Below are positions 28,748 to 59,064 of a stretch of 64,000 bases of DNA, piece by piece. The notes under the pieces are model-generated. The model had not been told where the DNA came from. It was given only the letters and a program-made list of their open reading frames with translations, and did not search any database. The position numbers were made by a program, and so were the translations under genes. The number at the start of each line of letters is the position of its first letter. Positions within the stretch are counted from its first letter, which is position 1. Origin of the DNA: Candidatus Omnitrophota bacterium. GTDB lineage: Bacteria > Omnitrophota > Omnitrophia > Omnitrophales > JACROU01. The stretch covers positions 237,126 through 301,125 of the forward strand of contig JAJDCD010000023.1 in NCBI GenBank assembly GCA_029261035.1, written 5' to 3'.

Positions 28748-28760
28748 AGGGGAAAATACA

Positions 28761-30071: not shown

Positions 30072-30093
30072 AAATTACTTAGGGAAGAGTCTA

Positions 30094-31050: not shown

Positions 31051-31085
31051 AGAAGGGACAACCCCATAGGACTGCCCCTTAGTTT

Positions 31086-32732: not shown

Positions 32733-32968
32733 ACTAAATCCTTTGTGCTTTTAACATCTGTGATTATAGGATCATAGCCCCCTTTACAAAAGGGCTGACA
32801 CCGTAAAATTCTAAAGAGAGTTTTTAAGCTTCCTTGAAGAAAGCCTTTTTTTTCATAAGCTTCGTGAGCATACTCTGAACAAGTTGGAACAAACCGACAG
32901 TGGTTTCCAAGGAGCGGGGAAATTAAAAAGCGATATGCTTCAATGAGTTTAAGAGCAATCCATTTCAT
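32729..32968 (-). CDS. yidD: Membrane protein insertion efficiency factor YidD
   Basis: 79 aa with conserved Cys residues (CRFVPTCSEYA) and a 4-nt overlap with yidC. Confidence 0.8.
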   Translation of the reverse strand: MKWIALKLIEAYRFLISPLLGNHCRFVPTCSEYAHEAYEKKGFLQGSLKTLFRILRCQPFCKGGYDPIITDVKSTKDLV

Positions 32969-33366
32969 TAAAGCACCCTTGCTTTTTTTAGTAGAGAAAT
33001 TAACTCTTTTTGTATCTCGTTTAATGACGGAGATACTAAAGGTTTATTTAGCCGGACCATTAAATCAAAAGGTTTATTTAAGCCATGTTTATGCAACCGA
33101 AAAACTTCTCTAACGAGACGCTTTATTCGATTACGCTCATGTGCTTTTTTCAAAACCCGTTTACTAACGACAATTCCTAAGCGAGAATTTTGTGGAAGAG
33201 CTGATTTAGAGCGCCCAGTTGATTGGGTTAACGAAGAGAGAGGGGGTCTTTCTTTATAATAAAGAGACAACAGTGTGCCTCTTAATTTATTTCCGCCTCT
33301 TAAAACCTTTAGGATTTCAGAATTTTTCTTTAACCGTTCCGTTTTTGAAAACTTATATGTTTCCAC
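32968..33366 (-). CDS. rnpA: RNase P protein component
   Basis: 132 aa, basic, located between rpmH and yidD. Confidence 0.85.
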
Positions 33367-33368
33367 AA

Positions 33369-33506
33369 CTATACAACAGCTAAACGCTTACGTCCTTTGC
33401 GTCTTCGATTTGCTAAAATTTTAGCTCCACCGCGAGTGCTTTTTCTCTTAAGGAAACCGTGCTTGTTTCTCTTTTTTCTATTGGATGGTTGGTATGTTCT
33501 TTTCAT
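33369..33506 (-). CDS. rpmH: 50S ribosomal protein L34
   Basis: Hand translation of the minus strand gives [45 protein letters not shown]. It is absent from the ORF track because it is under 60 aa. Confidence 0.85.
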
Positions 33507-33555
33507 AGCCCGAAGATTATATCAGAGACACTAGGGACAGGCTACTTTATTTTCA

Positions 33556-33612
33556 CTCATTCAGGCCCGGGCCTCTTTTTTTCAGAAAAAGGAGGCCCGG
33601 GCCTGAATAGAG
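33556..33612. repeat. ~55-bp GC-rich near-perfect palindrome
   Basis: cattcaggcccgggcctctttttttcag / aaaaaggaggcccgggcctgaatag. The 17-bp arms ATTCAGGCCCGGGCCTC are exact reverse complements and the flanks extend the symmetry. It lies between the divergent starts of rpmH and the Rrf2 gene. Confidence 0.6.
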
Positions 33613-33684
33613 AAATGAAAGGATATTTGACTAAATCTACATCGCAGGTTAAAATCCTCTTAATCAGATAGGAGTAATAGGAGT

Positions 33685-34128
33685 ATGAAGATATCCAAAC
33701 GAGGTGAATACGCTTTAAGGTGTTTATTAGCATTAACTTACAACTATGGAAAAGGTGTGCTTAAACTCAGTGAAATCGCCAATGAGCATGAGATTCCTTA
33801 TAAATTCTTAGAACAAATCATGATTCTTTTAAAACAGGCAGAGTTAGTAAAAAGCCAAAAAGGAAAAAAGGGAGGGTATGAACTGGCCAGAAACCCTAAC
33901 GAAATTCTTTTAGGAGAAATAGTTCGTTTGACGGATGGACCTTTGGCCCCTATTCATGACGAGAGAAGTTTGAAGCATTTGGTTGATGAGGGAGGTCCTC
34001 AGGCAGGGCTCTTTGACTTATTCCTCGAAGTTCGAAACTCCGTCTCATCTATATTAGATCATCGAACCCTCCAAGACTTAGCTCAAAGGAATATGGAGCT
34101 TCAACAAAAAGAGATGTACTTCATTTGA
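33685..34128 (+). CDS. Rrf2-family transcriptional regulator
   Basis: 147 aa. The N-terminal wHTH MKISKRGEYALRCLLALT...LSEIANEHEIPYKFLEQIMILLKQAELVKSQKGKKGGYELAR is the Rrf2 signature. No Fe-S-ligating Cys cluster was seen. Confidence 0.8.
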   Translation: MKISKRGEYALRCLLALTYNYGKGVLKLSEIANEHEIPYKFLEQIMILLKQAELVKSQKGKKGGYELARNPNEILLGEIVRLTDGPLAPIHDERSLKHLVDEGGPQAGLFDLFLEVRNSVSSILDHRTLQDLAQRNMELQQKEMYFI

Positions 34129-34339
34129 GGATAAAGCTATCAAATGAAAGAGAACAGAGAACAGAGAGCAGAGTACAGAGATTCCGTAAATCGTTGACAA
34201 TAATTTGATGATTTCCCCTAAGTTCTTTGTATAAAACTCCTTATGAATAAGCAGTAAAAAAACCTCTAAAAATTGTGGTTTCAGAGGTTGTAAGAAGTGC
34301 TCCTACCAGGTATGATTCATAAAATTTACTCTTTTAAAG

Positions 34340-37300
34340 GTGTTTTCTAATTTTATGATCAAGTTCAAAAAACCGATCGCTTTTTTTACTTTTTTACTTT
34401 TTACGATGAATACGTTTGCTTATGCTGCGCCGGAAATCTCTTTGTCTTCTTTAAAGGCTAAAGACAATATTCTTCTCCCATTAAATATTCAAATACCAGA
34501 AACCTTAGGCGTCGTTGAAGAAGAAATTTTAGGTTCTGGCCCTATAGTTATTCATATAGAAGATGCTCATGCAGATTACCAAGCCCAGAAAAACATACAA
34601 GCAATTATTGAACACTTAGAAAAGACCCAAGATTTTAACCAGCTTTTTCTTGAGGGTGGAGCAGGAGAATTGACCCCCGAAAGCTTTCATTTCTTTGAAG
34701 AACATTCGTTAAATCAAAAGGTTGTCGATGACTTAATGCAACAAGGCTTGTTTTCGGGAGCCGAAGCGTTCTTGGTCGATAATACTGAGACAGCCCAAGG
34801 TTTCGGCATTGAGGACATTGATACGTATCGAAAGAACTTACAACAATTTCGAGAAGTGATTCAAACAAAAGAAACGCATGTTTGGACTGAAGAACAAAAA
34901 CAAATCCTTTCCACTCAAATTTCAAAAACATTCCCCAAAGAATTAAGAGAGATTGTTTCTCTTAGACAGAAGCTCGACCTAAATCAAATATCACTGTTAA
35001 GTTATGTAAACCTTTTGAATCATTTAGTAAAAAAACATCTTTCCATCGATTTACAAGACAAGAAACATCAATGGGATTACCCCTCTTTAGTTCGACTTGT
35101 TCGACTTAAGGAGATGAAAACAACAAACCTCGAACAAATCCAATCAGAAAAGAAAGCGTGGCTCGAAAAACTTGAAGAGCTTAACTTAGATAACGAATTG
35201 ATGGAAAAGCTAGAGAATATAGAAAAACAAAAATTCCCAAGATTTGTCTTAGAACAACTGCACCAAGCAAAGGGAGGGAAGCTTTCTTTAGAGGATTTCC
35301 CAGCATGGAAAAATTATCTTCAACAATTAATGTATCAAACAGAAGTTGATAGCAAAGGGTTGTTTCAGGAAATAGAGAGCCTTTCAGGGAAACTCTATAA
35401 GGGGTTAGTCCAAACACCAGCGCAACAAAGTCTTCTTAAAAAGATAAAGAGTTTTCATCTTTTCGAAAAGCTTCTCTTGCTCGAGCTTACCCGAGAGGAG
35501 TATGGGAAACTTAAGATAGAAAATCTAGATGTTATGTTACCTGAAGAAATTGAAACTGTGTTGGAAGGGGCAAAATCTTTTTATAGGGAGGCTATAAAAA
35601 GAGAATTCTTTTTCACTCAAAATTTATTATCTCAAATGAAAGAAAATAAAAACCCAAAATCTATTTTAGTTACAGGAGGGTTTCATTCTGAAGGAATAAA
35701 AAAGAAAATAAGGGAATTAAATTTCTCTTATGTCCGAATTCGCCCTCACGTAGGATCTTCCATTGAATCACGAAAAATTTATTTAAATACGTTGCTTGAA
35801 GAAAATAAAACAAAAATAGCTTCCATTGCTAACGTACTTCAGATTATGCCTGAAGCCACACAGCAAAAAATGGGCGTTTCTGTTAAGAGAAGATTTTTTG
35901 TTAATGCAGCAGTGAGCCGAGCAGCATCTTTGGGTGAGGAGGAGCTTCCCAAAATTCCTGGAGCCAAGATTTTGACTTTATCTTTAGGGGAGCTTGCGGA
36001 TTACCTTGCTGAGAATCTTGAATCTCAATTTGAAGAGGCTGGGCGCAATTTTAGAACAAAAAAACCCAATGCGGTTTTAGATAGTTTTGAAATTATGGCG
36101 AATGCCCGATTTATTGATGCGGACACGGTTCGATTTATTTCACAACCTAGATTAGCCACAGGAGAAGATGGGGCTATTGTTAATACATCCCATGGGTTGT
36201 TGTCCAACATCATAGGCTTGGAGCCTAATGACTTTCAATCTCATTGGATGCGATTGATATTTTATTTATATCCTAACGATAAAATAGTTATTAATTTTAT
36301 TCACAATGGGTTTGTGCGAGAGCTCATCAGAAAAAGAAATGCGCACAAGTCACAAAAAGAATTTGATTATGATTTATCCATACGGGATGAGTACATTAAA
36401 TTAGCTCGAGTCTTTGTCGAGGCGTTTCGAAAAACACCTTATGGTTCTTCTGAAGAAAAGATTGAAAGCGTAAGAATTATAGAAGCGATAGGGGTTCCTT
36501 GGTTTTCATCTGAAGAGCAAAGCACCATTAAAATAGGAAATCAGGTTTCCTTGTATCTGTTATCGCAGTTACAGCTTTTAAGTGAGAAAATTGAAGGGGC
36601 ATCTCTGGGAGAAACAAATCAAATAGAAAAGAGCACCTTCTTTCAAAAATTTTGGGAGGCTCCTCTGTGGTTTAAGGTTCCTGTCAGTGTGGGTGTCATT
36701 AGTACTGCAGCAGCCCTTCTTTTTGGTTTAGGCTTGCCGGAGGCTTTTAAAAATCCAATAGCTTCTTTTTTTAATAACATCACTATCTTTGGATTTTTTG
36801 TTGCACTTGCAGATATTTTAGGTCAATGGATTTCGGGGGCAAAATATAATTTAAAACAAACTTTTCTTTCTTTTTTTCCTTTGGGGTTAGCGTTAGGAAC
36901 AATGACTTTTGTAGGTTACGGAATTATTAATTACTTAGTTCCTCAAGACTCTCAACTGACGGTCTGGATTTGGGGCGTTTTGCTTAGTGTTAGCGCTTTA
37001 ATGGGCTTCAAGTTAGCCAATTTTTATAACAGTTTTAAGGAAGATGTGAGCCAACTTCAACATTGGGCTTTTCGTATTGCGGGTATCGCGTTCCCACTTA
37101 TTCTAATTTGGCACTATCTGCCACGCGAAGAACCTCTTCCTGAGTTTGTTGTGGGCATTGTGCGTGTGTTGGGAACTTGGGTTGTGATACGGAGTAGAAC
37201 GATTCCTTATGCCTGGCTTGTCAAAAGAGTCAGAAATCAAATTAAAAAAGAAGAAGCAACGACATCTGCAGATAAAGAGGACGCAAAAGAAGCCTTAGAT

Positions 37301-40300
37301 GCTCAAGAAAAACAATACGAATCTTTTTGGATGTCGCGAGTTCCTTCCTTCATTAAAAATTATGTTGTGATGATGTTTTTCCCTCCACATTTAGCAGTTA
37401 TTTTAGAAGGCATTGCTACGCAATATTTCCAATTGTTTTACTCTTGGTCTGTAAATAAAAAAGGATTCATGATTAAAAAGGAAAATCTAAGAGGAAACCG
37501 AATGTTTCTTTTCTTTTTAGGGTTTATTTGGTGGTTAGGTGTTCAGCGTTTTACAAAAACAGAAACTAAGAAAGAGCCAAAAGAAGAAATAGAAGCAAAA
37601 AGTTTAGGAGCGATTTCGGATAAAGATAACAAAATTACGCGCCTTAATTTCTATAAGAAAGTTCGCCCTTATTTAGCTTATCTTGCCAGAAAAAATGTTT
37701 CGGCACCTTTTGCTGCAAAGACACCGGATTTGTTCTTACTTTTAGGCCATGGAGACCCTAGAACTTTCTATGAATTTTCTGGAGTTTGGAGAGATGCCAG
37801 TTTGAAAGGGCATCAAGTTCCCATTGTGATTGCTGGCGGTAGGGGTAGGGGAACGGATCTGTTGGTTCAAAAAATTATGCTCTATGCCCAAGATAACAAA
37901 ATTCCTTTTACCGAAGAAGAGCGAGCGTTGATTCTTAAAAGCGATATTTCTGAAGCTGAGATCATTAAAATGGTTCTTGTGAAACAAGAGATTCCTGAAG
38001 AGTTAATCACTGTTGAAACAAAATCCACAAATACACCCGAAAACTTTGTTAACAGCCTTGCTTTTGTTAAGCAGCTTGTGGGCCAAGATGCGTTAATTCA
38101 AGTCGTAACAAATCCACCTCTTAATTTAAGAGCCCATCAAACAGGATTAAAAAAATGGGAAGATATCATTAAAAGTCAGTCGTGGCAGTTGCGCACAACG
38201 CCTGTTTACATGCCTCGTTTACAAAAAATGACAGAAGAGGACACTTTAGAGTTTATCGCTTATGTTTTAGGCTTACCTTCGGGTTATCAACCTAAGAATA
38301 CGTCTGTGAATCGTAAAAGTGAAACAGAGCGAATTGCAGAGTATGGAACAAAAGAAACCCCAGATCTAATTCCTCTAGATTTTTCCGAAACAGAATGGAG
38401 CTTAGATGCTGTAAGGGAATTAAGAGAAACACATTTCAGAGACTTTCTTCAGCAAAAAGGCGACGTTCCGAAAGACAAGTGGAGCAAAGGCATTTGGGCT
38501 CTTTTATTCTTTATTCCATCTTTCTTTATTGCTTTAGGGGTTGTCCCCGACTTTTTCTATAATGCGCGAGCGTTGTCCCCAACTTTTTACCTTCATGAAT
38601 TTTTGCATGGCAGTAATAGTTGGAATTTAGAAAACTTAAATATTCCTCTTTGGGCCAAAACAATGACTCATTGGGGCCCTATTTATTATGTGTTGTATGC
38701 GCTTGAATATGTTGCTCATGGTATTTCCGATGGACTTGTCTCTGTTTTTTCTTGGGCACTTTCTTTTTTTGGCATGGAAGAAGAAGGGGGTAAGCTTTCG
38801 TATATTATTCCAGATGCTGTTGATTTAATGATAGGTTTTACGGGCTTAAAAGTTGGACAAACACTATACTCTTTAAAGAATCAAACCCGCCTTTCGAGAT
38901 TTGGAATGTGGTCCAGCTTTACGGTTGCTTTTGGTTACTTTGCTTTTCACACACTCTATATTTTGCATGATGCCTTTCGCATCGGAGATTTTTCTAAAGT
39001 ACACCATCCTGAGAATGGAGACTACCGTATGTTTGCCAGCATTTTTTCTTCAGGTGCAGCGAGTCCAGGTCAAATATTTTTAACAGGCCTTTTCGTAGCA
39101 AGTTTTTCTTATCTTTTTGTTACTGCAGGCCATTGGCTTTTAAGTGGGATTAAAAACAGGTTACAACTAGGTTCTATTCGAGAGAGTTTTAGAAAAAGAG
39201 TAAGTGAAAAAATAATTTCTACTTACAAATCTACGGTTTTGGCTCTTTCCATTTTTATTGTTAGTTTTACAGCACTTTTAACAAGCGCAAGTTACTCCAC
39301 TCCCAAAATAACACCTGCTTCACCAGAGGTAAAAGAAACAGACCCAGAAAAATCCACCAAGAAAAGAGAACGCAAAGAGGACTATGTTGCCAACCCGGCA
39401 AAAGGAGATAGTTTAGGAAAGAGTATAGAAATAGCTCGAAGCGCCTCTAGACCGAACAGTGTAGAAGCGGCTTCTTTGGGATCTCAACAGGAAAAAATTG
39501 ATGAGAGAAGATTAAGAAGAGCTCAGCGAAGCCATAGACGATATAAAGATCCATTAGTATCTTTGATTCATATGGTGGTTACAGCGGATCAGAATCGTTT
39601 ACTTATGGTTAAGTCGGTGGAAGGGGCTCGTTGGTCGTTGTTGGAAGGGGCTCCTGTTCTTGGTGAAACTGTTTTTGAGGCTTCTAAGAGAATTCTACCT
39701 CTCTGGATTAATATGGCAGCCCAAACAACGAAGGCAATTGGGATTGTTTCTGACCCAGAACTTCATGATGTTTATGTTTATTCTCCTGTTATGAAAGTTG
39801 TTTTAAGGGATCAACAGCTTTTAAAAGATTCGAATCAGTTTTTTGATGCTCGTTTATTTTCCCGAGAAGAATTAAAGTCTATTTATCTTAAAATGTTTGT
39901 AAACCCAAATCATCGAAGCCTTGTTGAGGCTTTTGTTAATGATCCTCAGCTATCACATATCCCTGTTAAAGCAGAAAGTTTAAAATTTGCTGATCCGGAC
40001 AAACGTTTAATTGAAACGCCTTCTTTTGACCAAGCTAAAGCTAGAAGAACCAAAGAAGAACATAATTACCATATAGAGCAGGGGAAAACACAACACAATT
40101 TAACATCGGTTGGATTGGTGGAGGTAACGAAGCCAAACGGAGAATATTTAGGAGTTATGCTTCAACAAATTAAAAAAGGAGCATATAAAGGGCAGTGGTC
40201 TTTAAGTGGAGGGCATCCCTCTCATGGTGAAAGTGCTGTTTATGCGGGCATGCGAGAGATATATGAGGAAACTAGTTTGGTTGCAACCAAGCCGCACTTT

Positions 40301-42235
40301 TTAGGCATTTTGCCTCCAAGTTATCCTGGTAGTCCTGAAAGTTACATTCAATCTTTATATAGTTTTCAAGCAAAAGGTTATCCTAACCCTGATAATAAAG
40401 AAGTTTCCGCCATTGCTTTTGTTAAGAATTTTGAAGAGCTCAATGAGTTTGCGCGAAATAATATACTTGCGTGGAGTGTGTATGGGACCGTAGCTAAATT
40501 TCTATTAGAAAAAGAAGGTGTAAAACTACCGGAAGAAATAACAACATTAGTGAAATCCCTTTTTTCAAAATATGCGTTTGATTCAAAGCGACTTCACTCG
40601 GTAACTCTTGCATTAACTTACTTAATTCCAGAAATTATTAAAACACAGCTGCAGAATGTTAACTTAGAGAACTCGAATTTTATTTTAAGTTCTATGTTCC
40701 ATTATTACTTATCCAAGATGTTGCTAGACACACTACAAAGTAACCCCCGGTTTGAAGCAGGCGCGTTGCTGCGATTTATGCAATTGGGCGATCAAGATAT
40801 ATATGACCCTAAAGCTTCTGGCGGAGGAGCGTACTTTACACAGGAGATTCCCGAAGAATTTAAAGCGGCGTATGAGAAGCAAGAACAAGAAAATGGACGA
40901 TTATTAGCAGATAAATGGTTGTTAGAAGAAAAAGGGATTTTTTGTTTTAGAAAGAAACAAGGTGAGGAGATGCGTTATGAAACTTGGTATTGGAGAGTGA
41001 ATCCTTGGAACGATGGAGCAACTTTAAAATTAGAGGATGAGGAGTATCAAGGGTTAGAGGCTCTATCCTTAACGTTGCAACAAGCAACTCATTTTGTTCT
41101 TAATGATCGCAATGCCAATGGCTTTTTACTCATAGACCCAAAAAGTCCTTTAGCTCAAATCGCAGAGGCTTCAAGAGAGGAGAGCAACTCTGCTGCTATT
41201 GAAGGGAGACCCGTACTTCCATCGGAATATTTGGTTCCAGAACTTCAACTATTATTAGGCGAACAGGTTCAAGATATGAATGAAACCTTAGATGCAATGG
41301 CAGAAGAAATGCTCCAATTTCTAGGAAAATCAATTTTACCTTCTACGCATGAAAACTTAAAACAACGCTTGCGACTCGAACTCTTTAAAATTTTATATGT
41401 AACACAAATGGCGGAGATCTCTCACCTCGAAACTGTTGGAGCAGCTTCTCTAGGTAGTATAAAAGAAAGAGAAGTAGACGCTATTATTTATGTGACAGAA
41501 ACTGTTGCCGGAGGGATTTATTATTTACCAGAGGCAGATCAAACACTTCTTGTGTTGTTTAAAGAAAATGCTAAGGATGGAAAGACAGAAATAAAAACTT
41601 CATCTGCTGTAAATGCTTTTAATAGGGATATAACGCCGGTTTTGAATCTAGTACCACAAAATGTAAGGGGCCCTCAATCCAGACTGCCGCTCATTGTTTT
41701 TGATGATGTTCTTAAGAAGAGAAAAGAAACGGCACGTCAAATGGCGCATCAACTTTCTTCCGCGCTAAAGCCAGGCGACTTATTTGTAGCTGTTTGGGAG
41801 GGAGACGATAAACCTTCAGTGCTGAGCCAGCTTTATCGAGAAGCAAATACATCCGAGTTTCAGGTGCGGGATATTCCAAAAGCGCTTATTTCTGAAGCGC
41901 GTGTTCAGTCTTTGACGCGAAAAATAGAAACAGCTCCTGTGGCAATTAGTTCGTTATACGATACTTCAGATTTAGAACTGGAATTGCGAGGAGGCGATAA
42001 AATTAAATTAGATTTAAGCTCATTAATTGAAAAGGGGGTTAACCCGATTCAAGTCGTGAAATTAATTCGAGCGCTTTCAGATAATTTAGAAGCCCGAAAG
42101 GTGCTTTTTGAACGTATTGGATTTAAGTGGAACGAAAAAGAAGGTTTTTGGACCGTTGGAAAAGACTTTACTCAATTCCTCGAAACAATCTACACACAAT
42201 CTCTCACACAACAGCTAGTCCTTCAAGCAGCTTAG
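34340..42235 (+). CDS. Giant secreted/membrane protein of 2631 aa. It has an N-terminal domain shared with the second giant protein, two polytopic TM blocks, an embedded Nudix hydrolase motif and recurring A[AS]SLG motifs.
   Basis: Uninterrupted 7.9-kb ORF in AT-rich DNA. Signal peptide MIKFKKPIAFFTFLLFTMNTFAYA. N-terminal domain residues ~60-480 are homologous to the 43433 protein. Hydrophobic helices occur at residues ~770-900 and ~1380-1640. Nudix box GGHPSHGESAVYAGMREIYEETSL at nt ~40207-40275. An RBS-like AAAGGTG lies upstream. Confidence 0.9.
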   Translation: MFSNFMIKFKKPIAFFTFLLFTMNTFAYAAPEISLSSLKAKDNILLPLNIQIPETLGVVEEEILGSGPIVIHIEDAHADYQAQKNIQAIIEHLEKTQDFNQLFLEGGAGELTPESFHFFEEHSLNQKVVDDLMQQGLFSGAEAFLVDNTETAQGFGIEDIDTYRKNLQQFREVIQTKETHVWTEEQKQILSTQISKTFPKELREIVSLRQKLDLNQISLLSYVNLLNHLVKKHLSIDLQDKKHQWDYPSLVRLVRLKEMKTTNLEQIQSEKKAWLEKLEELNLDNELMEKLENIEKQKFPRFVLEQLHQAKGGKLSLEDFPAWKNYLQQLMYQTEVDSKGLFQEIESLSGKLYKGLVQTPAQQSLLKKIKSFHLFEKLLLLELTREEYGKLKIENLDVMLPEEIETVLEGAKSFYREAIKREFFFTQNLLSQMKENKNPKSILVTGGFHSEGIKKKIRELNFSYVRIRPHVGSSIESRKIYLNTLLEENKTKIASIANVLQIMPEATQQKMGVSVKRRFFVNAAVSRAASLGEEELPKIPGAKILTLSLGELADYLAENLESQFEEAGRNFRTKKPNAVLDSFEIMANARFIDADTVRFISQPRLATGEDGAIVNTSHGLLSNIIGLEPNDFQSHWMRLIFYLYPNDKIVINFIHNGFVRELIRKRNAHKSQKEFDYDLSIRDEYIKLARVFVEAFRKTPYGSSEEKIESVRIIEAIGVPWFSSEEQSTIKIGNQVSLYLLSQLQLLSEKIEGASLGETNQIEKSTFFQKFWEAPLWFKVPVSVGVISTAAALLFGLGLPEAFKNPIASFFNNITIFGFFVALADILGQWISGAKYNLKQTFLSFFPLGLALGTMTFVGYGIINYLVPQDSQLTVWIWGVLLSVSALMGFKLANFYNSFKEDVSQLQHWAFRIAGIAFPLILIWHYLPREEPLPEFVVGIVRVLGTWVVIRSRTIPYAWLVKRVRNQIKKEEATTSADKEDAKEALDAQEKQYESFWMSRVPSFIKNYVVMMFFPPHLAVILEGIATQYFQLFYSWSVNKKGFMIKKENLRGNRMFLFFLGFIWWLGVQRFTKTETKKEPKEEIEAKSLGAISDKDNKITRLNFYKKVRPYLAYLARKNVSAPFAAKTPDLFLLLGHGDPRTFYEFSGVWRDASLKGHQVPIVIAGGRGRGTDLLVQKIMLYAQDNKIPFTEEERALILKSDISEAEIIKMVLVKQEIPEELITVETKSTNTPENFVNSLAFVKQLVGQDALIQVVTNPPLNLRAHQTGLKKWEDIIKSQSWQLRTTPVYMPRLQKMTEEDTLEFIAYVLGLPSGYQPKNTSVNRKSETERIAEYGTKETPDLIPLDFSETEWSLDAVRELRETHFRDFLQQKGDVPKDKWSKGIWALLFFIPSFFIALGVVPDFFYNARALSPTFYLHEFLHGSNSWNLENLNIPLWAKTMTHWGPIYYVLYALEYVAHGISDGLVSVFSWALSFFGMEEEGGKLSYIIPDAVDLMIGFTGLKVGQTLYSLKNQTRLSRFGMWSSFTVAFGYFAFHTLYILHDAFRIGDFSKVHHPENGDYRMFASIFSSGAASPGQIFLTGLFVASFSYLFVTAGHWLLSGIKNRLQLGSIRESFRKRVSEKIISTYKSTVLALSIFIVSFTALLTSASYSTPKITPASPEVKETDPEKSTKKRERKEDYVANPAKGDSLGKSIEIARSASRPNSVEAASLGSQQEKIDERRLRRAQRSHRRYKDPLVSLIHMVVTADQNRLLMVKSVEGARWSLLEGAPVLGETVFEASKRILPLWINMAAQTTKAIGIVSDPELHDVYVYSPVMKVVLRDQQLLKDSNQFFDARLFSREELKSIYLKMFVNPNHRSLVEAFVNDPQLSHIPVKAESLKFADPDKRLIETPSFDQAKARRTKEEHNYHIEQGKTQHNLTSVGLVEVTKPNGEYLGVMLQQIKKGAYKGQWSLSGGHPSHGESAVYAGMREIYEETSLVATKPHFLGILPPSYPGSPESYIQSLYSFQAKGYPNPDNKEVSAIAFVKNFEELNEFARNNILAWSVYGTVAKFLLEKEGVKLPEEITTLVKSLFSKYAFDSKRLHSVTLALTYLIPEIIKTQLQNVNLENSNFILSSMFHYYLSKMLLDTLQSNPRFEAGALLRFMQLGDQDIYDPKASGGGAYFTQEIPEEFKAAYEKQEQENGRLLADKWLLEEKGIFCFRKKQGEEMRYETWYWRVNPWNDGATLKLEDEEYQGLEALSLTLQQATHFVLNDRNANGFLLIDPKSPLAQIAEASREESNSAAIEGRPVLPSEYLVPELQLLLGEQVQDMNETLDAMAEEMLQFLGKSILPSTHENLKQRLRLELFKILYVTQMAEISHLETVGAASLGSIKEREVDAIIYVTETVAGGIYYLPEADQTLLVLFKENAKDGKTEIKTSSAVNAFNRDITPVLNLVPQNVRGPQSRLPLIVFDDVLKKRKETARQMAHQLSSALKPGDLFVAVWEGDDKPSVLSQLYREANTSEFQVRDIPKALISEARVQSLTRKIETAPVAISSLYDTSDLELELRGGDKIKLDLSSLIEKGVNPIQVVKLIRALSDNLEARKVLFERIGFKWNEKEGFWTVGKDFTQFLETIYTQSLTQQLVLQAA

Positions 42236-42241
42236 AGCATT

Positions 42242-42408
42242 GTCATCCCGTACTTGATACGGGATCCAGTGTCTTTATCTTTTCTTTAATCGTCATTGCG
42301 AGGCGTCGAACAAAGAGCCGCGGCAATCTCAGGATTTTGAATAAGAATGGAAGATGCCCATTTTCTTGAGATTGCCGCAGCTTTTTTGTCAAAGCTTCGC
42401 AATGACAG
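42242..42408. repeat. Intergenic modular repeat cluster: module A (GTCAT, hairpin, ATCCAGTGTCTTT) followed by two inverted copies of module C (GTCATTGCGAG...GCGGCAATCTCAG)
   Basis: 42242-42276 gtcatcccgtacttgatacgggatccagtgtcttt. 42292-42338 gtcattgcgaggcgtcgaacaaagagccgcggcaatctcaggatttt. 42368-42408 is the reverse-orientation copy. Related copies are at 59104-59283, 61234-61272 and 62592-62684. Confidence 0.6.
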
Positions 42409-55400: not shown

Positions 55401-57073
55401 CACATAGCTTTTTAAAGCTTATAAGAAAAAATCTTGCGATTAAAAAGAAGAGAATGGATTTACTTCAATATAAAGCAGCTGTTTATGGTTCTGAAGATGA
55501 AGCTCTGTTGAGAAAGCTTTGGGAAGAGTCTGGTTTTAAAATTGTGTCTTTAGAACCTTTGAAAGAGAACGAGCAAGATATTGATTACCCTCTTCCTGAG
55601 AGTGCATTAAAAACATATGGATGGAAAGTAAGGGTTGTCAAAGAGAGAACCTTGTCTCAGCGTAGTGAGGCAATAGAAGCCATCAAATTGCCATCAGATC
55701 AGTTGCGTAACAAGGATAAATCTTTGGTTTTGTCGCCTGAAACAAGGGCTATGCTAGAAATTCCTTATAAAGAAAAACGAGTTTCTAAAAAAGAGATCCA
55801 AAAAATGCTAGCTCAACGGGAATTTTTTAAAGATGCACGTGTGTTTGAATATATAGAACGGTATTTTGACAATCCGTCACGTGAAAGGAAGCACGACTTA
55901 GAAATTGTTCTTAGCCGAATTAATAATTTAGTTGGCTTAGCGTTTAGAACAAAAGGAATGGATGGTGAAGAAGACTTGTTGAGAGTAGAGGACTTAATGG
56001 CTGTTCAGAGAGTCTTAAACCAAGTTTTTTTTGGTAAAGGAATCAAACAAAAAAAGAACAGAAAAAAATGGCAAGCCCTCAAAGGGCAACTTCAAATGAA
56101 GTATGGGATCTATCAACTTATTCTTAACCATCAGACCTTAAGTACTCCTATTCACGAAAGGCTTCAAGGTTTATTGAAAAAATTTGATGTTATTTCAGAG
56201 ATTGAGGTAGATGAAGATAGAGAGGTCTTACGAATAAAAGCGAAAATCGAGAGAGAGTTTGTTTCTTCAAACGCTGAAAGTTTGGGAAGACAAGCCGTTG
56301 TGGGCTTTTATGATCTTAATCAACAGTTGGGTGGGGGAACCCGTCTCGGGTTTGACCGGGTTACCTATGAACTGACAAAAGGCCTTTTATCTCCGGTTCT
56401 TCGTTTAGATAGAGAGACTTATGATGAGGCGTATTCTTCTCTTTTTCCTGAAGAAATTTTAGAGAGTTTTAGTTTGCCTAAAGACAAACTAGATCAAATG
56501 GGTCTTTGGGGAAGAGTTTTAGCGGCAGGACAAGAAGGGCCCTCAAGGCATGTGTTTGACTATAGGAGTTTGCCAAAAAATATTGAAAGTCTAGATGCAT
56601 TGATTCTTTATTTGTTGCAACACAAAAAATTAACCTACACCTTACTAACGATAGCGCCTATCGAAGAAGTTAGAGAGTTTAAATTATTATTAAAAAAATA
56701 TATTTCGGATAAATATCAAACCAGTTTAGGTGAACGTTTTAATTTACAAGGGGTCCATTCAGAAAAGGAATTGAAAGCTTCTGTTCATAAACTTGTTTCT
56801 GATAATCAAAAGAGTGCTTTAGCTTTTGTATCTGAGGATGCAGAACAATCTTGGGTTGGTTTTACACGTAATAATTTGTTACAAGTAGCTGGATCTAAAG
56901 ATGCCTCCACTCAAAATGCTTCTGTTATTGTTGCAGCTCAAAAATTATTAGAACCTTTACCAACGCATCTTTTTTGGGAAGTTCAAAAACCAGAAGATTT
57001 AACAACGACTTTTATTTGGAATGAATTACTGATTCGATTTCAAGCAGATACAATGCTTCGAATTGCGGCTTAA
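43433..57073 (+). CDS. Giant secreted protein of 4546 aa. It has an N-terminal domain paralogous to the 34340 protein, two class I SAM-methyltransferase-like domains, two internal tandem repeat arrays and recurring A[AS]SLG motifs.
   Basis: Uninterrupted 13.6-kb ORF. The likely true start is the in-frame TTG at 43484, giving MKFLYKTRRFLSSLVLFTFLFSLIQV...ANA/AT as signal peptide. MTase motif I-like LDLGTGNFHA (nt ~47452) and VDTGTGAYTA (nt ~54661), each followed by a GTD strand. A basic KRKRKRRR patch at nt ~54415-54440. Confidence 0.9.
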   Translation: MLFFLKSFILFQERPTRLKFLYKTRRFLSSLVLFTFLFSLIQVSDLKNANAATIVPQSPLFVFDFDLPRNLGELTHISPKVLLDPTSDEPLFFHIQSSHRHYETETNIKEILRFLTKEYDIKHIFLEGGAYRLHPENFQFFPEDPEMNKKVVQTLLQKGELTGAEAFLIESEQNVSGWGLEDAKLYKENRDLFKKIIKLQPQAQTYLDFLILELNSINSVVLNNTLKKWLQQKKRHKEQTTPLSERLRYLKKQAKKQLDLDLSTPISQNLFPTLVRYFQLEKSLKEFNLEHWKKEKDLFLHELKKMELEPNLAKEIHSFLDKTPGFLKENYGYDSKTSQIFSLPKLRFVFERLYDALPEDFDIKRFPSVAQYIQIEILKDEVKGKQMFQEIKILEEKVLSSLIQTPEEKEHINLLEEITRLKKLIRLELTREEYNRYFDNSSQQNKPEHILDSTHQTISQTIKNKKTSLDILKQKLLETGIFDLTLSFYRAAIDREEAMTNKLLKHAKEVLKEKTIFITGGFHSEIFESTLKKNNLNYVQISPHMGDGSDFSEETYLKASLGKSFIETAHKEAPLRTDPLLLSELNDPMFLADIKAVVDETVLEVSGKSLGGLYDKDKTKTVGEVSFTGDVEKDFHQITEWFQTIFSNQEDVDLFLKQNYIVYGKRGEGWILRIEKNSDHTLSFDFEGVLMGGLNTPTLAKYQFVFDYQESSVQLFVYANWLLDLPYISDDQLILKKKIYFNSEELSSLKFENNKFYIEVPEKVRQQLWNLEILERFEKEGVASEHLQLVSEAQGIVLPKSGDVMPSMASSLGKAKSVDPEELAQRILTSKRFIIRKGAIDRLTGIASQMVFNLPEGKEAETQRRAFDILARLSVPQEEGEEVLPTEVYELLHLALAHIALQRTLPYSTEALEQLKNNLLSSNISEERFFKSVTNAFWNIIYLDARKEHGYRKDFILEVLSFIESTILSKSPQLRSLVYPLLFEFLKRLAYEVGNQTKSSEHFGVVTAPILNKIFDIYKHVFSTPNFEKKVYKDAVIHSFLHIYWGVKGDYSPLPLMQRRIDDFQPVVNFIQDAWNESREEERRNGIKDLYDNFVQYQDEGSASSLGNAHRPPFSFKNGIFRLNWNYPGKADVYPWAPKERGSFAEALNYWYGRAIFFTVDEREPLHYEEAITERLSSAVGDFEKIYRGLAAYPQLRLSNVLIQRNLDKPTAEVVEMIKPLIFDAAKAFGEAPESRAFRVDRKADHDSLMVLYHNAEQFVDTVTPFYRAHQSKASSLGLRPVEEKKVSTFDRFPTDKDYWDLFWKEAKLSSSSVNGDYPPSISGFLERFFSKLPNNFKSGLDLGTGNFHALRKAREHFDSRAMTPILIGTDFAQPGMSPPEGVVFRKVAGEHLSDLLIDDELDLQHIEAIFGVHSLLYMNVEGTLRQMNAVMPMGGQIGFVLHHAESTYVFSEKYYLEMLLLLERLDLFATLRQFIKDPRPKTLRVVYKKTKVLIDIILQKQEEDRAFSDSPTGKMIGELIGLSSYVTQQVLSDWLKNSSYAHKVPEFSTPFDMIYMMEFLSLDEMEGFREEGLDDYIYEVMSQYKKLKVELNQTHTEYLERIEGRFYGRKKKAALLKEAAIYGMQHKDELMDLFKRNGFEVEVEELHDTQSNGRSLLGWGVTGTKISEAMEKKPVLKRVNSEMPKLDFDEIKMKIPDFNDDFFESVQNQLEQLELLERIGFLKAAYAILQDPSNLWAQNTLNHAVYILDLYAHFISGMKKFIGDYAFFNPSTILSLYYQTLKGLETRLLPGELLDHILWIQSQIRMNQIEKVLLRRILELRPEEKVRRPGKIVQRALSELGYELTLFGQTSFSKDNTYWEIEIEKTTAASLGRLRSMTTHRVFSKEEKELKTNEIVPAASLGQVRNQKSVLIDRIRAGYEKLKEEEKVEIGDISLLVDKKEGRFYKTFPHPGGKNKGSREPVRLGANIEELELRLLREEEAIVLEFIYTKKGKKGVAKLYWTGKKYETEYERKVREMREAFKNLEEEKVVAVGDVSLLVNKSQGKLQHGFPTPNGNTLNKLQPIGTGMKGARQETVASSLGVQLNKEMLIMKIREGFRDLEVGNTKMVSIGDVSLLVDKKRGRFYQTFPTPDGGTVERGQGIGAGKGIKDIYLKMIKEEQEIVLEFWFKKGNSETEDRVKFYWNGKEYKQEKDRKKKELIKRIKKGFKKAKKGQSTEIGDVSLLVNKKYGRLQSVFPMPNGEKVAGIGLSFGAKLNLKKISLKIQNEEGQIVLKFLYRVKGKKEQETAKLYWNGKKYETEEKKKSSNKEQKELIKKIRKGFKDLESGKSEAIEVGDVSLLIKKKRGLFKGSFPTPNGGKVGASQALGTSGNLSEIFLTIRKEGNQIVLEFRYTKMISNTGDRKEKIVGKERLYWNGTKYLNKFNTGERKKREERLIKQIRNGFKSLKLGRKQEVEIEDISLLIYKKYGTLKPIFPTPDGGQVRKGYPFGGTKHIKEIALRIKKEEGQIVLEFFYKIEGEEKKSVRKVYWHEGKYESEVGRKKREIHEGFKNLQSGEKEKIEIEDISLLVNMRHGVFKPDFPTPDGGRIGKSRGMGVGKNLKAISLRASKVKGKIVLEYFYKTKGSKKEKFAKVYWFEGKYEVEIDRKRREIREGFQKLQLGEQEEIEIGDVSLLVNKRYGNFQMTFPTPDGSQVGRVGAIGIGKNLKEVTLTIRKENGEIILVFFSKTKGSKKEKQTKLYWYEEKYESETDRKRREIREGFQKLQLGEQEEIEIGDVNLLVNKKAGNFKFRFPTPDGGQVGKQYAIGMGGDSIEIDLKIKREKETGKILLEFRYQKQGRATFEKVPVTLAWNPTTKTYEPYVPETQQDVYEFDLDTEGFSLGRQMLEVGSQKMPKAKGYELTAIEASSLGEQQALEEAWKAFQLQRPQLIAKIEAWKAGKRGEETARQLRDQIYKIERADLIAWDLDKYMHKKSSQKVFSGYKELLIALFSDLQLNPLGFQLDFVKKPLESIRFRFAQKVPSVMERYARVETLSEEEKDLLREEVYEIDSSRLKEWQLERVLHRKEVPLFDGDYRQVLILSLPDLKLNPLGFGLDFTTLEKALESMRFIFEKEILEILKRYEQLKGLSELKVEQLREEIYAIRGRHLTAWGLEGLGDRSAAPYFKGSTFNALNTFFSELNLNSLDYELDWSSPEQATASVHHVFNKEFPELMERYRRFEELSFSQQNRLRDEFYQFTQNQMQALNLRAATQEYFQNTHAIAMQAIFPKLELNVLGFSLDWSSPEQARASLRFVFQRHIPSIMERYEKIDQLDAEMIERLRRDIYHNISNAHFRLWKIQNLIRTKVLGENYLEVLDVFFNDPRLGFSILGMRQYRKQNTTTKYQWKDLQQAKTSIKEAMRENMPELVDQYEAWESLSLFEQNNLRDDFYAITAGHIAVWGLNSALNNRAVPFFKGKIFNVLNETFPNLKLNPLGFALDYTTTDRALESIRYVLSKKKPKVIEEYDRRHELSQDEIEALKEKIYQINSRSLLLWGLRGAFSKKESPQFEGSYVRALQTFFSGLELNPLRFRTDFTTEENAINSVLSKFERYKPQLFSKYQSIEDLTEEEVETLREQIYRIQPEQLKLWGLRGAFSYFKGGYRAILMAVFNHSRLNLEKESFKRKRKRRRISESGRIPTVGLNVQTDEESSASSLGEDMSDTEVWKYGFKTVKGSAEYNPELKKAIREFFRALKGSNPDKLKIISVDTGTGAYTAINEARNYLEEQGWLHRFELVGTDIFEPEEKAPKGVRFEKVATESLSDSFALESLDGVMSVRSLLYTDVKDSLFVLNQVLKVGGEGLFILHHKYSEILAFDRDFQEQVDILKGLKLFAHLETFVKQPNYRNLRQLLIVRKIISNAIHERKTRKDFPHILNREIGLLQKFQAAIDYSVYLVLRDGLKKKITTKEIDEVLSFLEVPTNMEEEFLPYFNDLMTLYIRQYSGFDVQTYEHSAHSFLKLIRKNLAIKKKRMDLLQYKAAVYGSEDEALLRKLWEESGFKIVSLEPLKENEQDIDYPLPESALKTYGWKVRVVKERTLSQRSEAIEAIKLPSDQLRNKDKSLVLSPETRAMLEIPYKEKRVSKKEIQKMLAQREFFKDARVFEYIERYFDNPSRERKHDLEIVLSRINNLVGLAFRTKGMDGEEDLLRVEDLMAVQRVLNQVFFGKGIKQKKNRKKWQALKGQLQMKYGIYQLILNHQTLSTPIHERLQGLLKKFDVISEIEVDEDREVLRIKAKIEREFVSSNAESLGRQAVVGFYDLNQQLGGGTRLGFDRVTYELTKGLLSPVLRLDRETYDEAYSSLFPEEILESFSLPKDKLDQMGLWGRVLAAGQEGPSRHVFDYRSLPKNIESLDALILYLLQHKKLTYTLLTIAPIEEVREFKLLLKKYISDKYQTSLGERFNLQGVHSEKELKASVHKLVSDNQKSALAFVSEDAEQSWVGFTRNNLLQVAGSKDASTQNASVIVAAQKLLEPLPTHLFWEVQKPEDLTTTFIWNELLIRFQADTMLRIAA
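49160..52020 (+). repeat. Internal tandem array 1 in the giant gene: about 9 units of ~105 aa (~315 nt)
   Basis: Recurring unit ...REGF+.L+.GE.EEIEIGDVSLLVNKK.G.F...FPTPDGG.VG......G......L.I+KE.G.IVLEF.Y+.KG.....+.YW.G.KYE.E.DRK+REI. The GD[IV]SLL core recurs 9 times. Units are divergent at nucleotide level but conserved in protein sequence. Confidence 0.8.
52270..54410 (+). repeat. Internal tandem array 2 in the giant gene: about 7 units of ~90 aa (~275 nt)
   Basis: Recurring unit F..L.LNPLGF.LD+.....A..S.RF.F.K..P...E+Y....LS..E...LR.E.Y.I....L..WGL. Cores are LNPLGFQLDF, LNPLGFGLDF, LNSLDYELDW, LNVLGFSLDW, LNPLGFALDY and LNPLRFRTDF. Confidence 0.75.
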
Positions 57074-57081
57074 TGAAAATT

Positions 57082-59064
57082 TTAAACTTTTAGTTGTTTT
57101 TCGGCGTCGACAACGTCGCGATTCATTCGGCTCATTGCTTTTATGGCTTTGTCTTTGAGATGGTCGGAGACATTTGGGGCATGGATTAATTGGCGTAATA
57201 ATTGAACGATCATCCGAAAACATCTTACTAACTCCCCTTCAGCTACAGTGGCATTCTTCATTACTTTTTCAAACGAATGGTTTTGATACCAAGCTTCGAC
57301 ATATTCTGTCAGATGAAAAAAGGCAGGTTTGGTAAAGGGATGAATTTCAAATTTTCTTTCTTTTTTGTAAACGTGTTTATTGCAACTTGTAGCCAGATTT
57401 TCTACATTTCTGAATCGTTTATGGAGATCAGGCATTTCGTCGTTCTTTCTAGGTTCATAAACGAGAGCTGCTAATATAACACAAAGTTCTAAAGGGTTGA
57501 TCGCATCTAAGTGGCCGTCCCCTTGCATTTCTCCAAGCAGAAGTTCGTAGCCATAGAGTCGTGAAGCAAATTTACCTTTTTCTGAAATTTTATTTTTTTC
57601 AATATAACCCATATCTTTAAGCAAACTGATTTTGGATTGCATTAACTCTAGAGCCAACCGTTTATTTCTTTTACTGCTTTGATAAGCATGAAATGATTTT
57701 GGGTAAATCTCTAGCAGTCTTTCTCCGAAAATTTCGTAAAGATTGAGGACGGTAGCGTAGCCCGTATTAAACTGACTGCGCACAGATTCATTTTCTCGAA
57801 AGATAATGCGTTTCACTTCTTCATGATCTATTTCATGAGGATTAACGCGAGTATAAACAAAACCTTCTTTATCCATTCCTCTTCGACCTGCACGACCTGC
57901 CATTTGGTAGAAATCGCGGGTTTTTAAAGGTCCAAAATGAGTGCCATGATACTTTCTTAAACAGTCGAAGACAACGGTTCGAGCGGGCATATTGATGCCT
58001 ATTGCAAATGTTTCGGTGGTAAAGATCAGTTTAATCAGTTTGCTGGTAAATAAAACTTCAATCACTTCCTTTAATGTAGGAAGCATCCCTGCATGGTGAA
58101 AAGCCACACCTCTTTCGATCATGGTAACCATCCAAAGAGCAGAGCGTTCCTCAGAGAGATTGTATTTTTGTAATAAACTATTAAAGAGATCTAAAACCTT
58201 ACTTCTTTCATCATCGCTTAGGAAATTATAATTAGATAGTTCTAAGGCCAAAGATTCGCAGCGTTTTCTGCCGAAAGTGAAGTAAATACAAGGCAGTTTT
58301 TCTTCTGCCTTTAGGGTTTCGACCAAGGTTTCTATTCGGTTCGCTTTTGCTTTAGGCCGATCGATTCGATTGCGCTTGTATCGATCTCTCATGGATAAGC
58401 GCCAATCTTCTCTGTTTTCATAGCCTTGTTTTTTTAATCTTGGCATGTCTTCGAAAAATTTATTTTGGCATTGAAAAATATGGTGAAGCTTAACAGGCCT
58501 ATGTTCTTCGATAATAACTTCTACAGGACGCTCATGAACTTCGCGAATCCAAGAGGCCAGTTCGTCCACATTGGGAATGGTTGCTGACAGGCATAAAAAA
58601 TTGATGTGTTTAGGGGTGAACATAATTGCTTCTTCCCACACAGTGCCTCTTTCGGGGTCGTCTAAATAATGGATTTCATCAAAAATAACCCAAGAAATAT
58701 TTTCAAAGCGTTTTGGGTTTTCGAAAAGAGTATTACGAAAAATTTCTGTAGTCATTATGAGAAGAGAGCCTTTAGGGTTGATTGAGACATCTCCCGTTAA
58801 AATCCCTACTTCATTTTCGTATTTGTGTGTAAAATCTCTAAACTTTTGATTGCTAAGAGCTTTGATAGGAGAGGTGTAGATTACCCCTTCGTTTCGGCTC
58901 ATAGCCATTTCGATGGCGTATTCTGCAATTGCGGTTTTCCCAGCACCGGTAGGAGCTGATACAAAAACAGATTCTTCTTTTTTGATGATTTTGATGGCTT
59001 CTTCTTGAAACGCATCATATTTAAAAGACACGAGAACTCCTTTGCATGCTAGCGTAGAGCGCAT
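57082..59064 (-). CDS. Ski2-like / DEAD-DEAH superfamily 2 RNA helicase
   Basis: 660 aa. Motif I APTGAGKT, motif II DEIHYL, motif III SAT, HHAGMLP, motif VI QMAGRAGRRG. The C-terminal helical domain is reminiscent of the Ski2/HelY C-terminal region. Confidence 0.8.
   Translation of the reverse strand: MRSTLACKGVLVSFKYDAFQEEAIKIIKKEESVFVSAPTGAGKTAIAEYAIEMAMSRNEGVIYTSPIKALSNQKFRDFTHKYENEVGILTGDVSINPKGSLLIMTTEIFRNTLFENPKRFENISWVIFDEIHYLDDPERGTVWEEAIMFTPKHINFLCLSATIPNVDELASWIREVHERPVEVIIEEHRPVKLHHIFQCQNKFFEDMPRLKKQGYENREDWRLSMRDRYKRNRIDRPKAKANRIETLVETLKAEEKLPCIYFTFGRKRCESLALELSNYNFLSDDERSKVLDLFNSLLQKYNLSEERSALWMVTMIERGVAFHHAGMLPTLKEVIEVLFTSKLIKLIFTTETFAIGINMPARTVVFDCLRKYHGTHFGPLKTRDFYQMAGRAGRRGMDKEGFVYTRVNPHEIDHEEVKRIIFRENESVRSQFNTGYATVLNLYEIFGERLLEIYPKSFHAYQSSKRNKRLALELMQSKISLLKDMGYIEKNKISEKGKFASRLYGYELLLGEMQGDGHLDAINPLELCVILAALVYEPRKNDEMPDLHKRFRNVENLATSCNKHVYKKERKFEIHPFTKPAFFHLTEYVEAWYQNHSFEKVMKNATVAEGELVRCFRMIVQLLRQLIHAPNVSDHLKDKAIKAMSRMNRDVVDAEKQLKV

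Follow-up and report, generated by a model that had tools for sequence, protein, structure and literature searches.

The window examined here, a 64,000-nucleotide stretch of the chromosome of a Candidatus Omnitrophota bacterium, contains two giant open reading frames (ORFs), P1 and P2. P1 (34340..42235, + strand) starts with GTG and encodes 2631 amino acids (aa), and P2 (43433..57073, + strand) starts with ATG and encodes 4546 aa; the frames are intact over 7.9 and 13.6 kb, respectively. The public gene call places the start of P1 at an ATG at 34355, giving 2626 aa, and this is the probable true start. Both proteins carry a homologous N-terminal domain, here called the head. Residues 68-486 of P1 and 90-561 of P2 share 32% identity over 477 columns (BLASTP, E-value 5e-55), and outside this domain BLASTP detects no similarity between the two proteins. 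A preliminary description of the window had listed the two uninterrupted ORFs, the homologous N-terminal domain, complete divergence beyond it and a pilin-like gene on the opposite strand between the giants, and all four hold; the ORFs and their common domain are real.

The bodies behind the two heads are of different kinds. Judged from sequence and hydropathy alone, P1 has a predicted Sec-type signal peptide and P2 an N-terminal signal or anchor region, which includes the sole hydrophobic segment of that protein (residues 28-46; none beyond residue 46). The body of P1 is predicted to be embedded in the membrane and contains a Nudix domain, as the preliminary description had it. There are ~7 hydrophobic helices at residues 780-1022 and ~4 more at 1384-1652 (~11 in all), a DUF218 match (Pfam E 2e-9) and a NUDIX match (PF00293, E 2.9e-14, 53.7 bits against a cutoff of 21.1), the latter with PDB matches to MTH1/MutT. 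The Nudix box (GX5EX7REUXEEXGU) at residues 1958-1977 reads GHPSHGESAVYAGMREIYEE, with the last G changed to S. P2 had been described as a soluble protein with repeats and methyltransferase-like domains. The first two features stand, but the methyltransferase label amounts to a resemblance to motif I (VDTGTG...GTD and LDLGTG...GTD) and two Pfam hits below threshold (Methyltransf_11, E 0.1; Methyltransf_23, E 0.13), and searches of the PDB by sequence gave no match for these modules. They are ~590 aa long (residues 1279-1870 and 3695-4282) and paralogous, with 28% identity. An AlphaFold2 model of one such module with its flanking motifs reached a predicted local distance difference test (pLDDT) score of 35, which makes it unusable for judging either the fold or linker disorder. 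For the head and most of the modules, Pfam, NCBIfam and PDB sequence searches returned nothing beyond NUDIX and DUF218. The same family scans of P1 and P2 segments contained no nonribosomal peptide synthetase, polyketide synthase, RHS, cadherin or immunoglobulin families, the absence of which had also been noted before. No homology was detected between the C-terminal modules of P1 and P2, which form separate families by BLAST and jackhmmer. In the nine-repeat array of P2, the final two repeats are near-identical over ~30 aa (DRKRREIREGFQKLQLGEQEEIEIGDV), and this near-identity suggests a recent duplication. The array is rich in Lys, Glu and Gly and coincides with a strongly positive skew at window positions 48000-52000 (GC skew 0.28-0.33, AT skew up to 0.34).

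The preliminary account of the giant-protein features missed a short motif, x-[AG]-[AS]-S-L-G, which recurs along both proteins like punctuation. P1 contains 7 copies of SLG and P2 contains 13, where shuffled sequences give 1.2 and 2.0 (20 per 7,177 aa against 3.2), and the longer pattern [AG]xSLG occurs 17 times in the two proteins together, against 0.34 expected from shuffles. The window's other 31 ORFs contain SLG twice. At the 20 sites serine is encoded by TCT, TCA, AGT and AGC, leucine by five codons (TTA, TTG, CTN) and glycine by four. This synonymous variation means that the constraint acts on the peptide and not on the DNA or RNA; a nucleic acid signal was considered and rejected, as the codons differ between sites and both serine codon families are used. 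None of the sites lies inside a Pfam domain or in either of the helix clusters of P1. Each of the two methyltransferase-like paralogues of P2 starts just past one SLG site and ends at another, and several sites are paired, 20-50 aa apart.

The head belongs to a family that is much larger than ordinary searches would indicate. An exhaustive hidden Markov model (HMM) search of 1.84 billion cluster representatives with a head-domain profile matched 9,234 proteins at E <= 1e-3; for 5,844 of these the match reached E <= 1e-30. The family is visible because the search was exhaustive; word-indexed protein searches recovered just 2-8 relatives. Among the 150 matches listed, the head is N-terminal and the host proteins are mostly 1,000-8,000 aa long, the longest being ~8,000 aa. 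A scan of one genome per species confirmed 330 head-domain loci, and the 79 of these that were listed come nearly all from metagenome-assembled genomes of Candidatus Omnitrophota, while a few carry the label Planctomycetia or Elusimicrobia. A genome has several copies, at times in tandem. An N-terminal hydrophobic segment is present in 96 of the 125 family proteins that start with Met, and further hydrophobic helices in 107 of them. P1 and P2 are thus members of a very large and undescribed family of Omnitrophota giant proteins. The idea that they fit no usual class of giant protein has to be given up in this respect, while the suggestion to search for the head by HMM and to catalogue its fusion partners was rewarding: 352 of 413 clusters of downstream modules are singletons. 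It could be argued that ORFs of this kind stem from errors of assembly or annotation, or that they represent fused genes or pseudogenes, and some relatives on long-read contigs are in fact split by changes of frame. The intact frames of P1 and P2, their identity to NCBI proteins predicted from one 630,564-nt contig, and the thousands of relatives, of like architecture among the matches listed, make the probability of this negligible.

Some observations concern the arrangement of family genes. In six loci (L016, L024, L041, L044, L061 and L066) a separate head ORF of 600-800 aa is followed, on the same strand and in another frame, by a motif-rich giant ORF; these could be true splits of head and body or frameshift errors of the assembly. 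Two pairs of family loci (L021/L039 and L027/L052) lie 16-22 kb apart on one contig, and L043 has an additional head-domain ORF on the opposite strand (~2588, - strand). Such clustering of family genes indicates lineage-specific expansion. No protease, secretion or other neighbour gene recurs in the 79 loci, where only family copies and scattered housekeeping genes are found repeatedly.

Punctuation is not restricted to P1 and P2, and its spelling is a property of the genome. Many relatives have R-x-E-[LVAM]-R, with S (74%), A (21%) or P (3%) in the second position, in up to 22 copies against ~0.3 expected. The type is uniform within a genome: the SLG type is found in JAKQXH, JACROU and the genome of this window, and R[SAP]E.R in all 13 other multi-locus genomes, mostly well above expectation. 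R[SAP]E.R does not occur in P1 or P2. Motif density is 1.8 per 1000 aa in the family ORFs and near background elsewhere, with the exception of adjacent giant ORFs on the same strand. The position of the motifs at module boundaries is seen most clearly when relatives are compared. As an example, the homologue of P1 residues 758-1087 in relative L005 (residues 999-1230) is flanked by SLG at 980 and 1232 and is followed directly by a homologue of the P1 C-terminal module, so that the two P1 modules absent there are missing exactly between motifs. The P1 C-terminal module is homologous to the last module of eight other SLG-type members, with SLG before each. In a very similar case, the homologue of P2 residues 3695-4282 in relative P0050 (residues 604-1091) is flanked by SLG at 580 and 1095. 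P0050 also ends in a homologue of the P2 C-terminal module, with SLG before it, and another homologue of that module, residues 2086-2285 of relative L022, comes after RAELR at 2082; one and the same boundary can thus be marked by either motif type. When 82 motif-bearing proteins were cut in silico at their motifs, giving 590 fragments of at least 80 aa, the head alone was universal among the fragments (it came first in 82 of 82; median length of the first fragment 609 aa), small C-terminal module families were always last, and no second universal module was found that could serve as a candidate protease.

The head itself was modelled with AlphaFold2 on a 12-sequence alignment (mean pLDDT 85.7, predicted template modelling score 0.74). 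The model has a small alpha/beta core broken by ~270 helical residues, and this core appears to have the alpha/beta fold with parallel beta-sheet of ChaN, Ere, TraB, HopBA1 and RRSP. Structural matches to the model, with their scores, were ChaN (2g5g, 10.1), HopBA1 (5t09, 10.1), BcR135/136 (2rad, 2qgm; 9.8 / 9.0), a TraB-family protein (8bqs_DQ, 9.3), EreC (6xcq, 9.0), RRSP (5w6l, 7.3) and PMT (2ebf, 7.1). The predicted fold is thus that of the TIKI superfamily (Tiki, TraB/PrgY, GumN, ChaN, erythromycin esterases, HopBA1, RRSP, PMT C1-C2), from which the head differs in several ways: it matches no curated model, its core is split by the helical insertion, and it is fused to giant bodies. The Pfam models TraB, Cofac_haem_bdg and Erythro_esteras and the NCBIfam models gave nothing at E <= 0.1, and there was no PDB sequence match. 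Across 151 members the near-invariant positions (P1 numbering) are H72-I-[QE]-D75-x-H77, N85, L-E105-G, F-Y-x-x-A-x-x-R421 and T-G-G-F-H449, with E105, R421 and H449 at 100%, H77 at 98% and D75 at 82%. The TIKI-family endopeptidase RRSP has a catalytic set [ED]-x-H / E / H that was established by mutagenesis (PMC6254334). The conserved residues of the head follow in the same order, and P1 appears to carry a catalytic set of this 2His/2Glu type, with D75-A-H77. The P2 head has S-S-H there, the first acidic residue being replaced by Ser. From the modelled fold together with the order of these residues, the head is best read as a hydrolase (peptidase or esterase) that would form a new sequence family within the TIKI fold. 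The common targeting or anchoring module proposed in the preliminary description is therefore partly right: the domain is common, fused to highly varied bodies, but it looks like an enzyme and not like a passive anchor.

Viral polyproteins (picorna-, poty-, flavi- and nidoviruses) are single ORFs of unrelated units with a short lineage-specific motif at each junction. A short recurring motif at the junctions between independent units is also what is found here, and by analogy it suggests that the giants are cut into many proteins. On balance we lean towards this reading, in which P1, P2 and their punctuated relatives would be cellular polyproteins cut at a site code specific to the genome. The precursor would consist of an N-terminal export signal, the ~450-aa head, a string of unrelated modules (transmembrane bundles, DUF218, Nudix, possible methyltransferases, repeat arrays) and a C-terminal module ending in Ala-Ala. 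Between the modules would stand the code of the genome, [AG]-[AS]-S-L-G here and R-[SAP]-E-x-R in most other genomes, which a site-specific endopeptidase would read, cutting the precursor into its modules. Paired sites would release short spacers, and a single ORF would yield many proteins delivered together in a fixed ratio. P1 and P2 differ from the viral cases in being chromosomal genes of a cell, near dnaA, yidC and rnpA, and in having no chymotrypsin-like or papain-like protease module, and their cleavage is a proposal.

It is also possible that the giants stay intact as multi-domain membrane or surface proteins, with the motif as a linker element or as a docking site for a partner or a modifying enzyme. 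The literature, as far as its accessible text goes, treats Omnitrophota giants as single large membrane-associated proteins (10.1101/2023.11.21.568195; 10.64898/2026.06.07.730766), and the motif does sit in linker-like sequence, the hydrophobic fraction near both motif types falling from 0.32 to ~0.2. A passive linker, however, would have no reason for an exact code of 3-5 residues, kept throughout one genome and exchanged altogether in another. A sequon for serine modification does not fit either, since 24% of the sites have Ala or Pro in place of the Ser of R-S-E-x-R. Site pairs 20-50 aa apart, and modules gained or lost exactly at motifs, fit the release of units. We regard persistence as intact proteins as doubtful, though it deserves to be taken seriously.

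MARTX toxins are another known case of large bacterial proteins (3,500-5,300 aa) with interchangeable modules that are freed by cuts in the linkers between them, and one of their effectors, RRSP, is itself a TIKI-family endopeptidase (PMC6254334). This raises the question of whether the Omnitrophota giants are delivered like MARTX or polymorphic toxins, with conserved ends that translocate and modules that act as effectors freed in a host or prey cell. There is a likeness in architecture, with ends that are conserved, internal cargo that is highly varied and linker sites that recur, and Omnitrophota have been proposed to be predators or parasites (PMC10066038). Pfam scans of all segments, on the other hand, contain no RTX/GD-rich repeats, C80 cysteine protease domain, RHS or known toxin or immunity domains, and no small immunity-like ORFs follow P1 or P2. 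Several modules, being polytopic membrane bundles, are improbable as effectors for injection, others are enzymes of a housekeeping type and not toxins, and the candidate protease of P1 and P2 is N-terminal and of a different fold. Toxin delivery is very improbable.

If the giants are cut as proposed, the next question is which enzyme reads the motif. It could work genome-wide in one of two ways, either through heads acting in trans with concerted specificity or through an unlinked enzyme. As the head is universal among motif-bearing members, it is the leading peptidase candidate, and a head peptidase would have to act in trans as well as in cis. Also in its favour are a fold family that includes site-specific endopeptidases, conserved residues of catalytic type and the lack of any other gene recurring near the family loci. 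Position 347 of the head, which adjoins an invariant Glu, has a basic residue in 39 of 59 R-x-E-x-R heads but in 0 of the 15 SLG heads. A broader co-variation score gave a mean of 13.2 for the five SLG-type heads outside the core SLG clade, against 7.8 for the 59 R-x-E-x-R heads (Mann-Whitney p 0.003). We propose the head as the processing protease tentatively, at less than even probability. The full scenario, in which thousands of Omnitrophota precursors would be cut at a genome code by a new N-terminal TIKI-fold peptidase co-evolving with its sites, is doubtful as a whole.

Several findings weigh against these proposals. The co-variation of head and motif is weak and confounded by relatedness. 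The P1 head groups with SLG-type heads, but the best matches and the neighbour-joining neighbours of the P2 head all head R-x-E-x-R-type proteins, so that in P2 an R-x-E-x-R-lineage head precedes an SLG body and the motif follows the genome and not the lineage of the head. Nor does the P2 head show any excess of convergence on residues of the SLG clade, the figures being 9 of 71 deviations for this head and 10 of 62 and 9 of 43 for the controls. A separate trans-acting enzyme fits these two results better than a head acting in cis. One head clade, comprising about 100 of the 157 family proteins, lacks any detectable punctuation, which means that the head has a role independent of the motif; in the clade marked by 'LEGAF...YLSVF', gapped patterns of 3-4 positions found no motif. 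The dip in hydrophobicity at the motif sites is modest, and the best Foldseek matches to the head, the same erythromycin esterases, are weak (E ~0.05). The head is predicted to be exported, yet Nudix and methyltransferase-like modules are usually cytoplasmic enzymes, and some sites may lie on the other side of the membrane.

An unlinked endopeptidase encoded elsewhere in the genome might therefore cut the motif in trans, for example a PDZ-type C-terminal processing protease that reads Ala-ended tails. This version keeps cleavage and leaves the head with another job, as an esterase or peptidase acting on the envelope or prey, or in assembly. It would account for a motif type that is a property of the genome and cuts across head lineages, and for a whole head clade without the motif. 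It would also bring in the C-termini of the family, which end in Ala in 103 of 156 proteins, with the consensus ..[LI]xxAx[RL][LA][IV]A[RK][AS]A and a conserved amphipathic tail. SLG-type proteins, P1 and P2 included, mostly end in AA, matching the [AG]-[AS] that precedes SLG, and R-x-E-x-R-type proteins mostly end in SA. Such tails fit a cut before the motif, since the new ends left by cutting ahead of SLG would be ...A-[AS], much as the natural ones are, and a PDZ protease or an unfoldase may recognise the tail (..A[RK][AS]A-COOH) as a tag. Ala C-termini are, however, common in the motif-less clade too, and so do not depend on the motif. The window contains no protease gene, nor does one recur near the 79 related loci. 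The head is the sole universal partner of the punctuated bodies, and a few of its positions co-vary, if weakly, with motif type. An unlinked protease is in our view an unlikely, but not a far-fetched, solution.

Giant ORFs, among them the 'Archaeovorin', 'Dockerin-type' and multi-enzyme giants, have been described from Omnitrophota before (PMC10066038; 10.1101/2023.11.21.568195; 10.64898/2026.06.07.730766, all as far as accessible). P1 and P2 resemble them in phylum, in having a signal peptide and transmembrane helices, in tiling unrelated enzyme domains that include NUDIX, and in having few annotated domains and poor conservation. They differ in size, the known giants being ORFs of >20 kb (PMC10066038) or tens of thousands of aa (10.1101/2023.11.21.568195), and by Pfam scans they have none of the C39 or S8 peptidase, SecA or dockerin domains of those proteins. 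The accessible text of 10.1101/2023.11.21.568195 raises, as speculation, the idea that C39 or S8 domains do the cutting, and gives a lack of information on cleavage points as the reason why the authors could not split the proteins. That of 10.64898/2026.06.07.730766 has no mention of cleavage, polyproteins or a motif. A TIKI-fold head, a punctuation motif or an Ala-ended tail is not described in the accessible parts of the literature on Omnitrophota giants, and searches for bacterial polyproteins, cleavage sites of Omnitrophota giants and TIKI/TraB in Omnitrophota found nothing that matches. Whether these giants are one protein or many, and where they would be cut, are questions for which the motif gives a testable map. 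With it, thousands of giant ORFs that lack annotation could also be divided by rule into units suited to folding and annotation. If the proposed cleavage takes place, we know of no earlier large family of polyproteins in bacterial cells that uses a site code of the viral kind. A phylum of free-living bacteria would then express genes by a virus-like strategy, the TIKI-family enzymes would gain a new branch, and the code would be the cleavage map that earlier studies lacked. Should cleavage not be confirmed, the motif would still mark a recognition system that is the same throughout a genome and changes from one genome to another.

Table. Features of P1, P2 and the gene between them (window positions; residues in parentheses are those of the respective protein)
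Feature	Positions	Strand	Basis or remark
P1 predicted Sec-type signal peptide (MIKFKK...TFAYA/AP)	34355..34426	+	sequence reading and hydropathy
P1 head domain (62-486)	34523..35797	+	predicted TIKI/ChaN/TraB/Ere-fold hydrolase-like core, ~270-aa helical insertion
P1 site SLG 530 (RAA-SLG)	35927..35935	+	motif scan
P1 module 2 (533-754)	35936..36601	+	no known family (Pfam)
P1 SLG at residue 548, in module 2			no [AG] at -2; probably chance
P1 site SLG 755 (EGA-SLG)	36602..36610	+	motif scan
P1 module 3 (758-1087), ~7 transmembrane helix bundle	36611..37600	+	hydropathy; homologue in L005
P1 site SLG 1088 (EAK-SLG)	37601..37609	+	motif scan
P1 module 4 (1091-1690): DUF218 (1175-1268), then ~4 transmembrane helices (1384-1652)	37610..39409	+	
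P1 site SLG 1691 (KGD-SLG)	39410..39418	+	first of a pair 21 aa apart
P1 site SLG 1712 (EAA-SLG)	39473..39481	+	second of the pair
P1 module 5 (1715-2369) with NUDIX domain (1922-2034)	39482..41446	+	Pfam
P1 site SLG 2370 (GAA-SLG)	41447..41455	+	motif scan
P1 C-terminal module (2373-2631), end ...LQAA	41456..42232	+	homologues in 8 SLG-type members
Type IV pilin/pseudopilin-like gene, 148 aa	42735..43181	-	Pfam
P2 N-terminal hydrophobic signal or anchor region (1-51, ...NANA/AT)	43433..43585	+	hydropathy, sequence reading
P2 head domain (84-559), paralogue of P1 head	43682..45109	+	nearest relatives head R-[SAP]-E-x-R-type proteins
P2 site SLG 560	45110..45118	+	motif scan
P2 site SLG 609	45257..45265	+	paired with 560, 49 aa apart
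P2 site SLG 811 (MAS-SLG)	45863..45871	+	motif scan
P2 site SLG 1105 (SAS-SLG)	46745..46753	+	motif scan
P2 site SLG 1276 (KAS-SLG)	47258..47266	+	motif scan
P2 module 1279-1870, possible class I methyltransferase (LDLGTG...GTD)	47267..49042	+	weak; paralogue of 3695-4282
P2 site SLG 1871 (TAA-SLG)	49043..49051	+	motif scan
P2 site SLG 1901 (PAA-SLG)	49133..49141	+	paired with 1871
P2 repeat array 1, nine ~106-aa repeats (GD[VI]SLLV...FPTPDG)	49142..52072	+	
P2 site SLG 2080	49670-49678	+	splits repeat array 1 into 2 + 7
P2 site SLG 2881	52073..52081	+	motif scan
P2 site SLG 2909 (EAS-SLG)	52157..52165	+	paired with 2881
P2 repeat array 2, at least 7 ~93-aa helical repeats (LNPLGF.LDF...)	52166..54505	+	
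P2 site SLG 3692 (SAS-SLG)	54506..54514	+	motif scan
P2 module 3695-4282, second possible methyltransferase-like module	54515..56278	+	homologue in P0050
P2 site SLG 4283 (NAE-SLG)	56279..56287	+	motif scan
P2 C-terminal module (4286-4546), end ...RIAA	56288..57070	+	homologues in P0050, L022
P2 SLG at residue 4431, in C-terminal module			probably chance

The pilin-like gene between the giants matches PF07963 (N_methyl, E 3e-7) and ComP_DUS (E 1.5e-8), and has the N-terminal methylation motif G-F-T-L-x-E followed by a hydrophobic helix, in the form KKGFTLLEIIVV. As a component of the giant-protein system it was rejected, with 0 prepilin-like ORFs across 80 related loci (1.16 Mb covered), and it is probably a mere neighbour.

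The flanks of the window consist of ordinary genes of a chromosomal origin region: serS, gyrA, gyrB, dciA, dnaN and dnaA; sulfate-activation genes, tatC and a gene for an AddA-like helicase-nuclease; genes for ROK and GH94 proteins and for the solute-binding protein of an ATP-binding cassette transporter, and ndk; and parB, parA, mnmG, yidC and rnpA. The dnaA, dnaN, dciA, gyrB and gyrA genes are on the - strand of this origin-type region (window positions 9378-10763 and 26000-34000), parB, parA, mnmG, yidC and rnpA come further along, and the cumulative GC skew of the window has its minimum near 26-28 kb. A HigB/HigA pair (28457-29036), made up of a HigB-like toxin of 96 aa and a helix-turn-helix antitoxin of 91 aa, separates mnmG from a deoxyhypusine-synthase homologue (29082-30071), the latter being unusual for bacteria. 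An Rrf2-family regulator (33685-34128) lies immediately 5' of P1, 211 bp upstream on the same strand, and could control it. Promoter-like sites are found at 34288-34316 for P1 and at 43363-43390 upstream of P2, in numbers no higher than in shuffled sequence. On the 3' side of P2 are a convergent Ski2-like DEAD/DSHCT helicase gene (57082-59064, - strand), genes for a DUF6178 protein (59517-61214, + strand) and a baeRF family 10 release-factor-like protein (61417-62547, + strand), and a cation-efflux (CDF) transporter gene. It may be that the helicase, the DUF6178 protein and the baeRF protein form an RNA or ribosome quality-control set beside the 13.6-kb ORF, although their proximity is perhaps due to chance.

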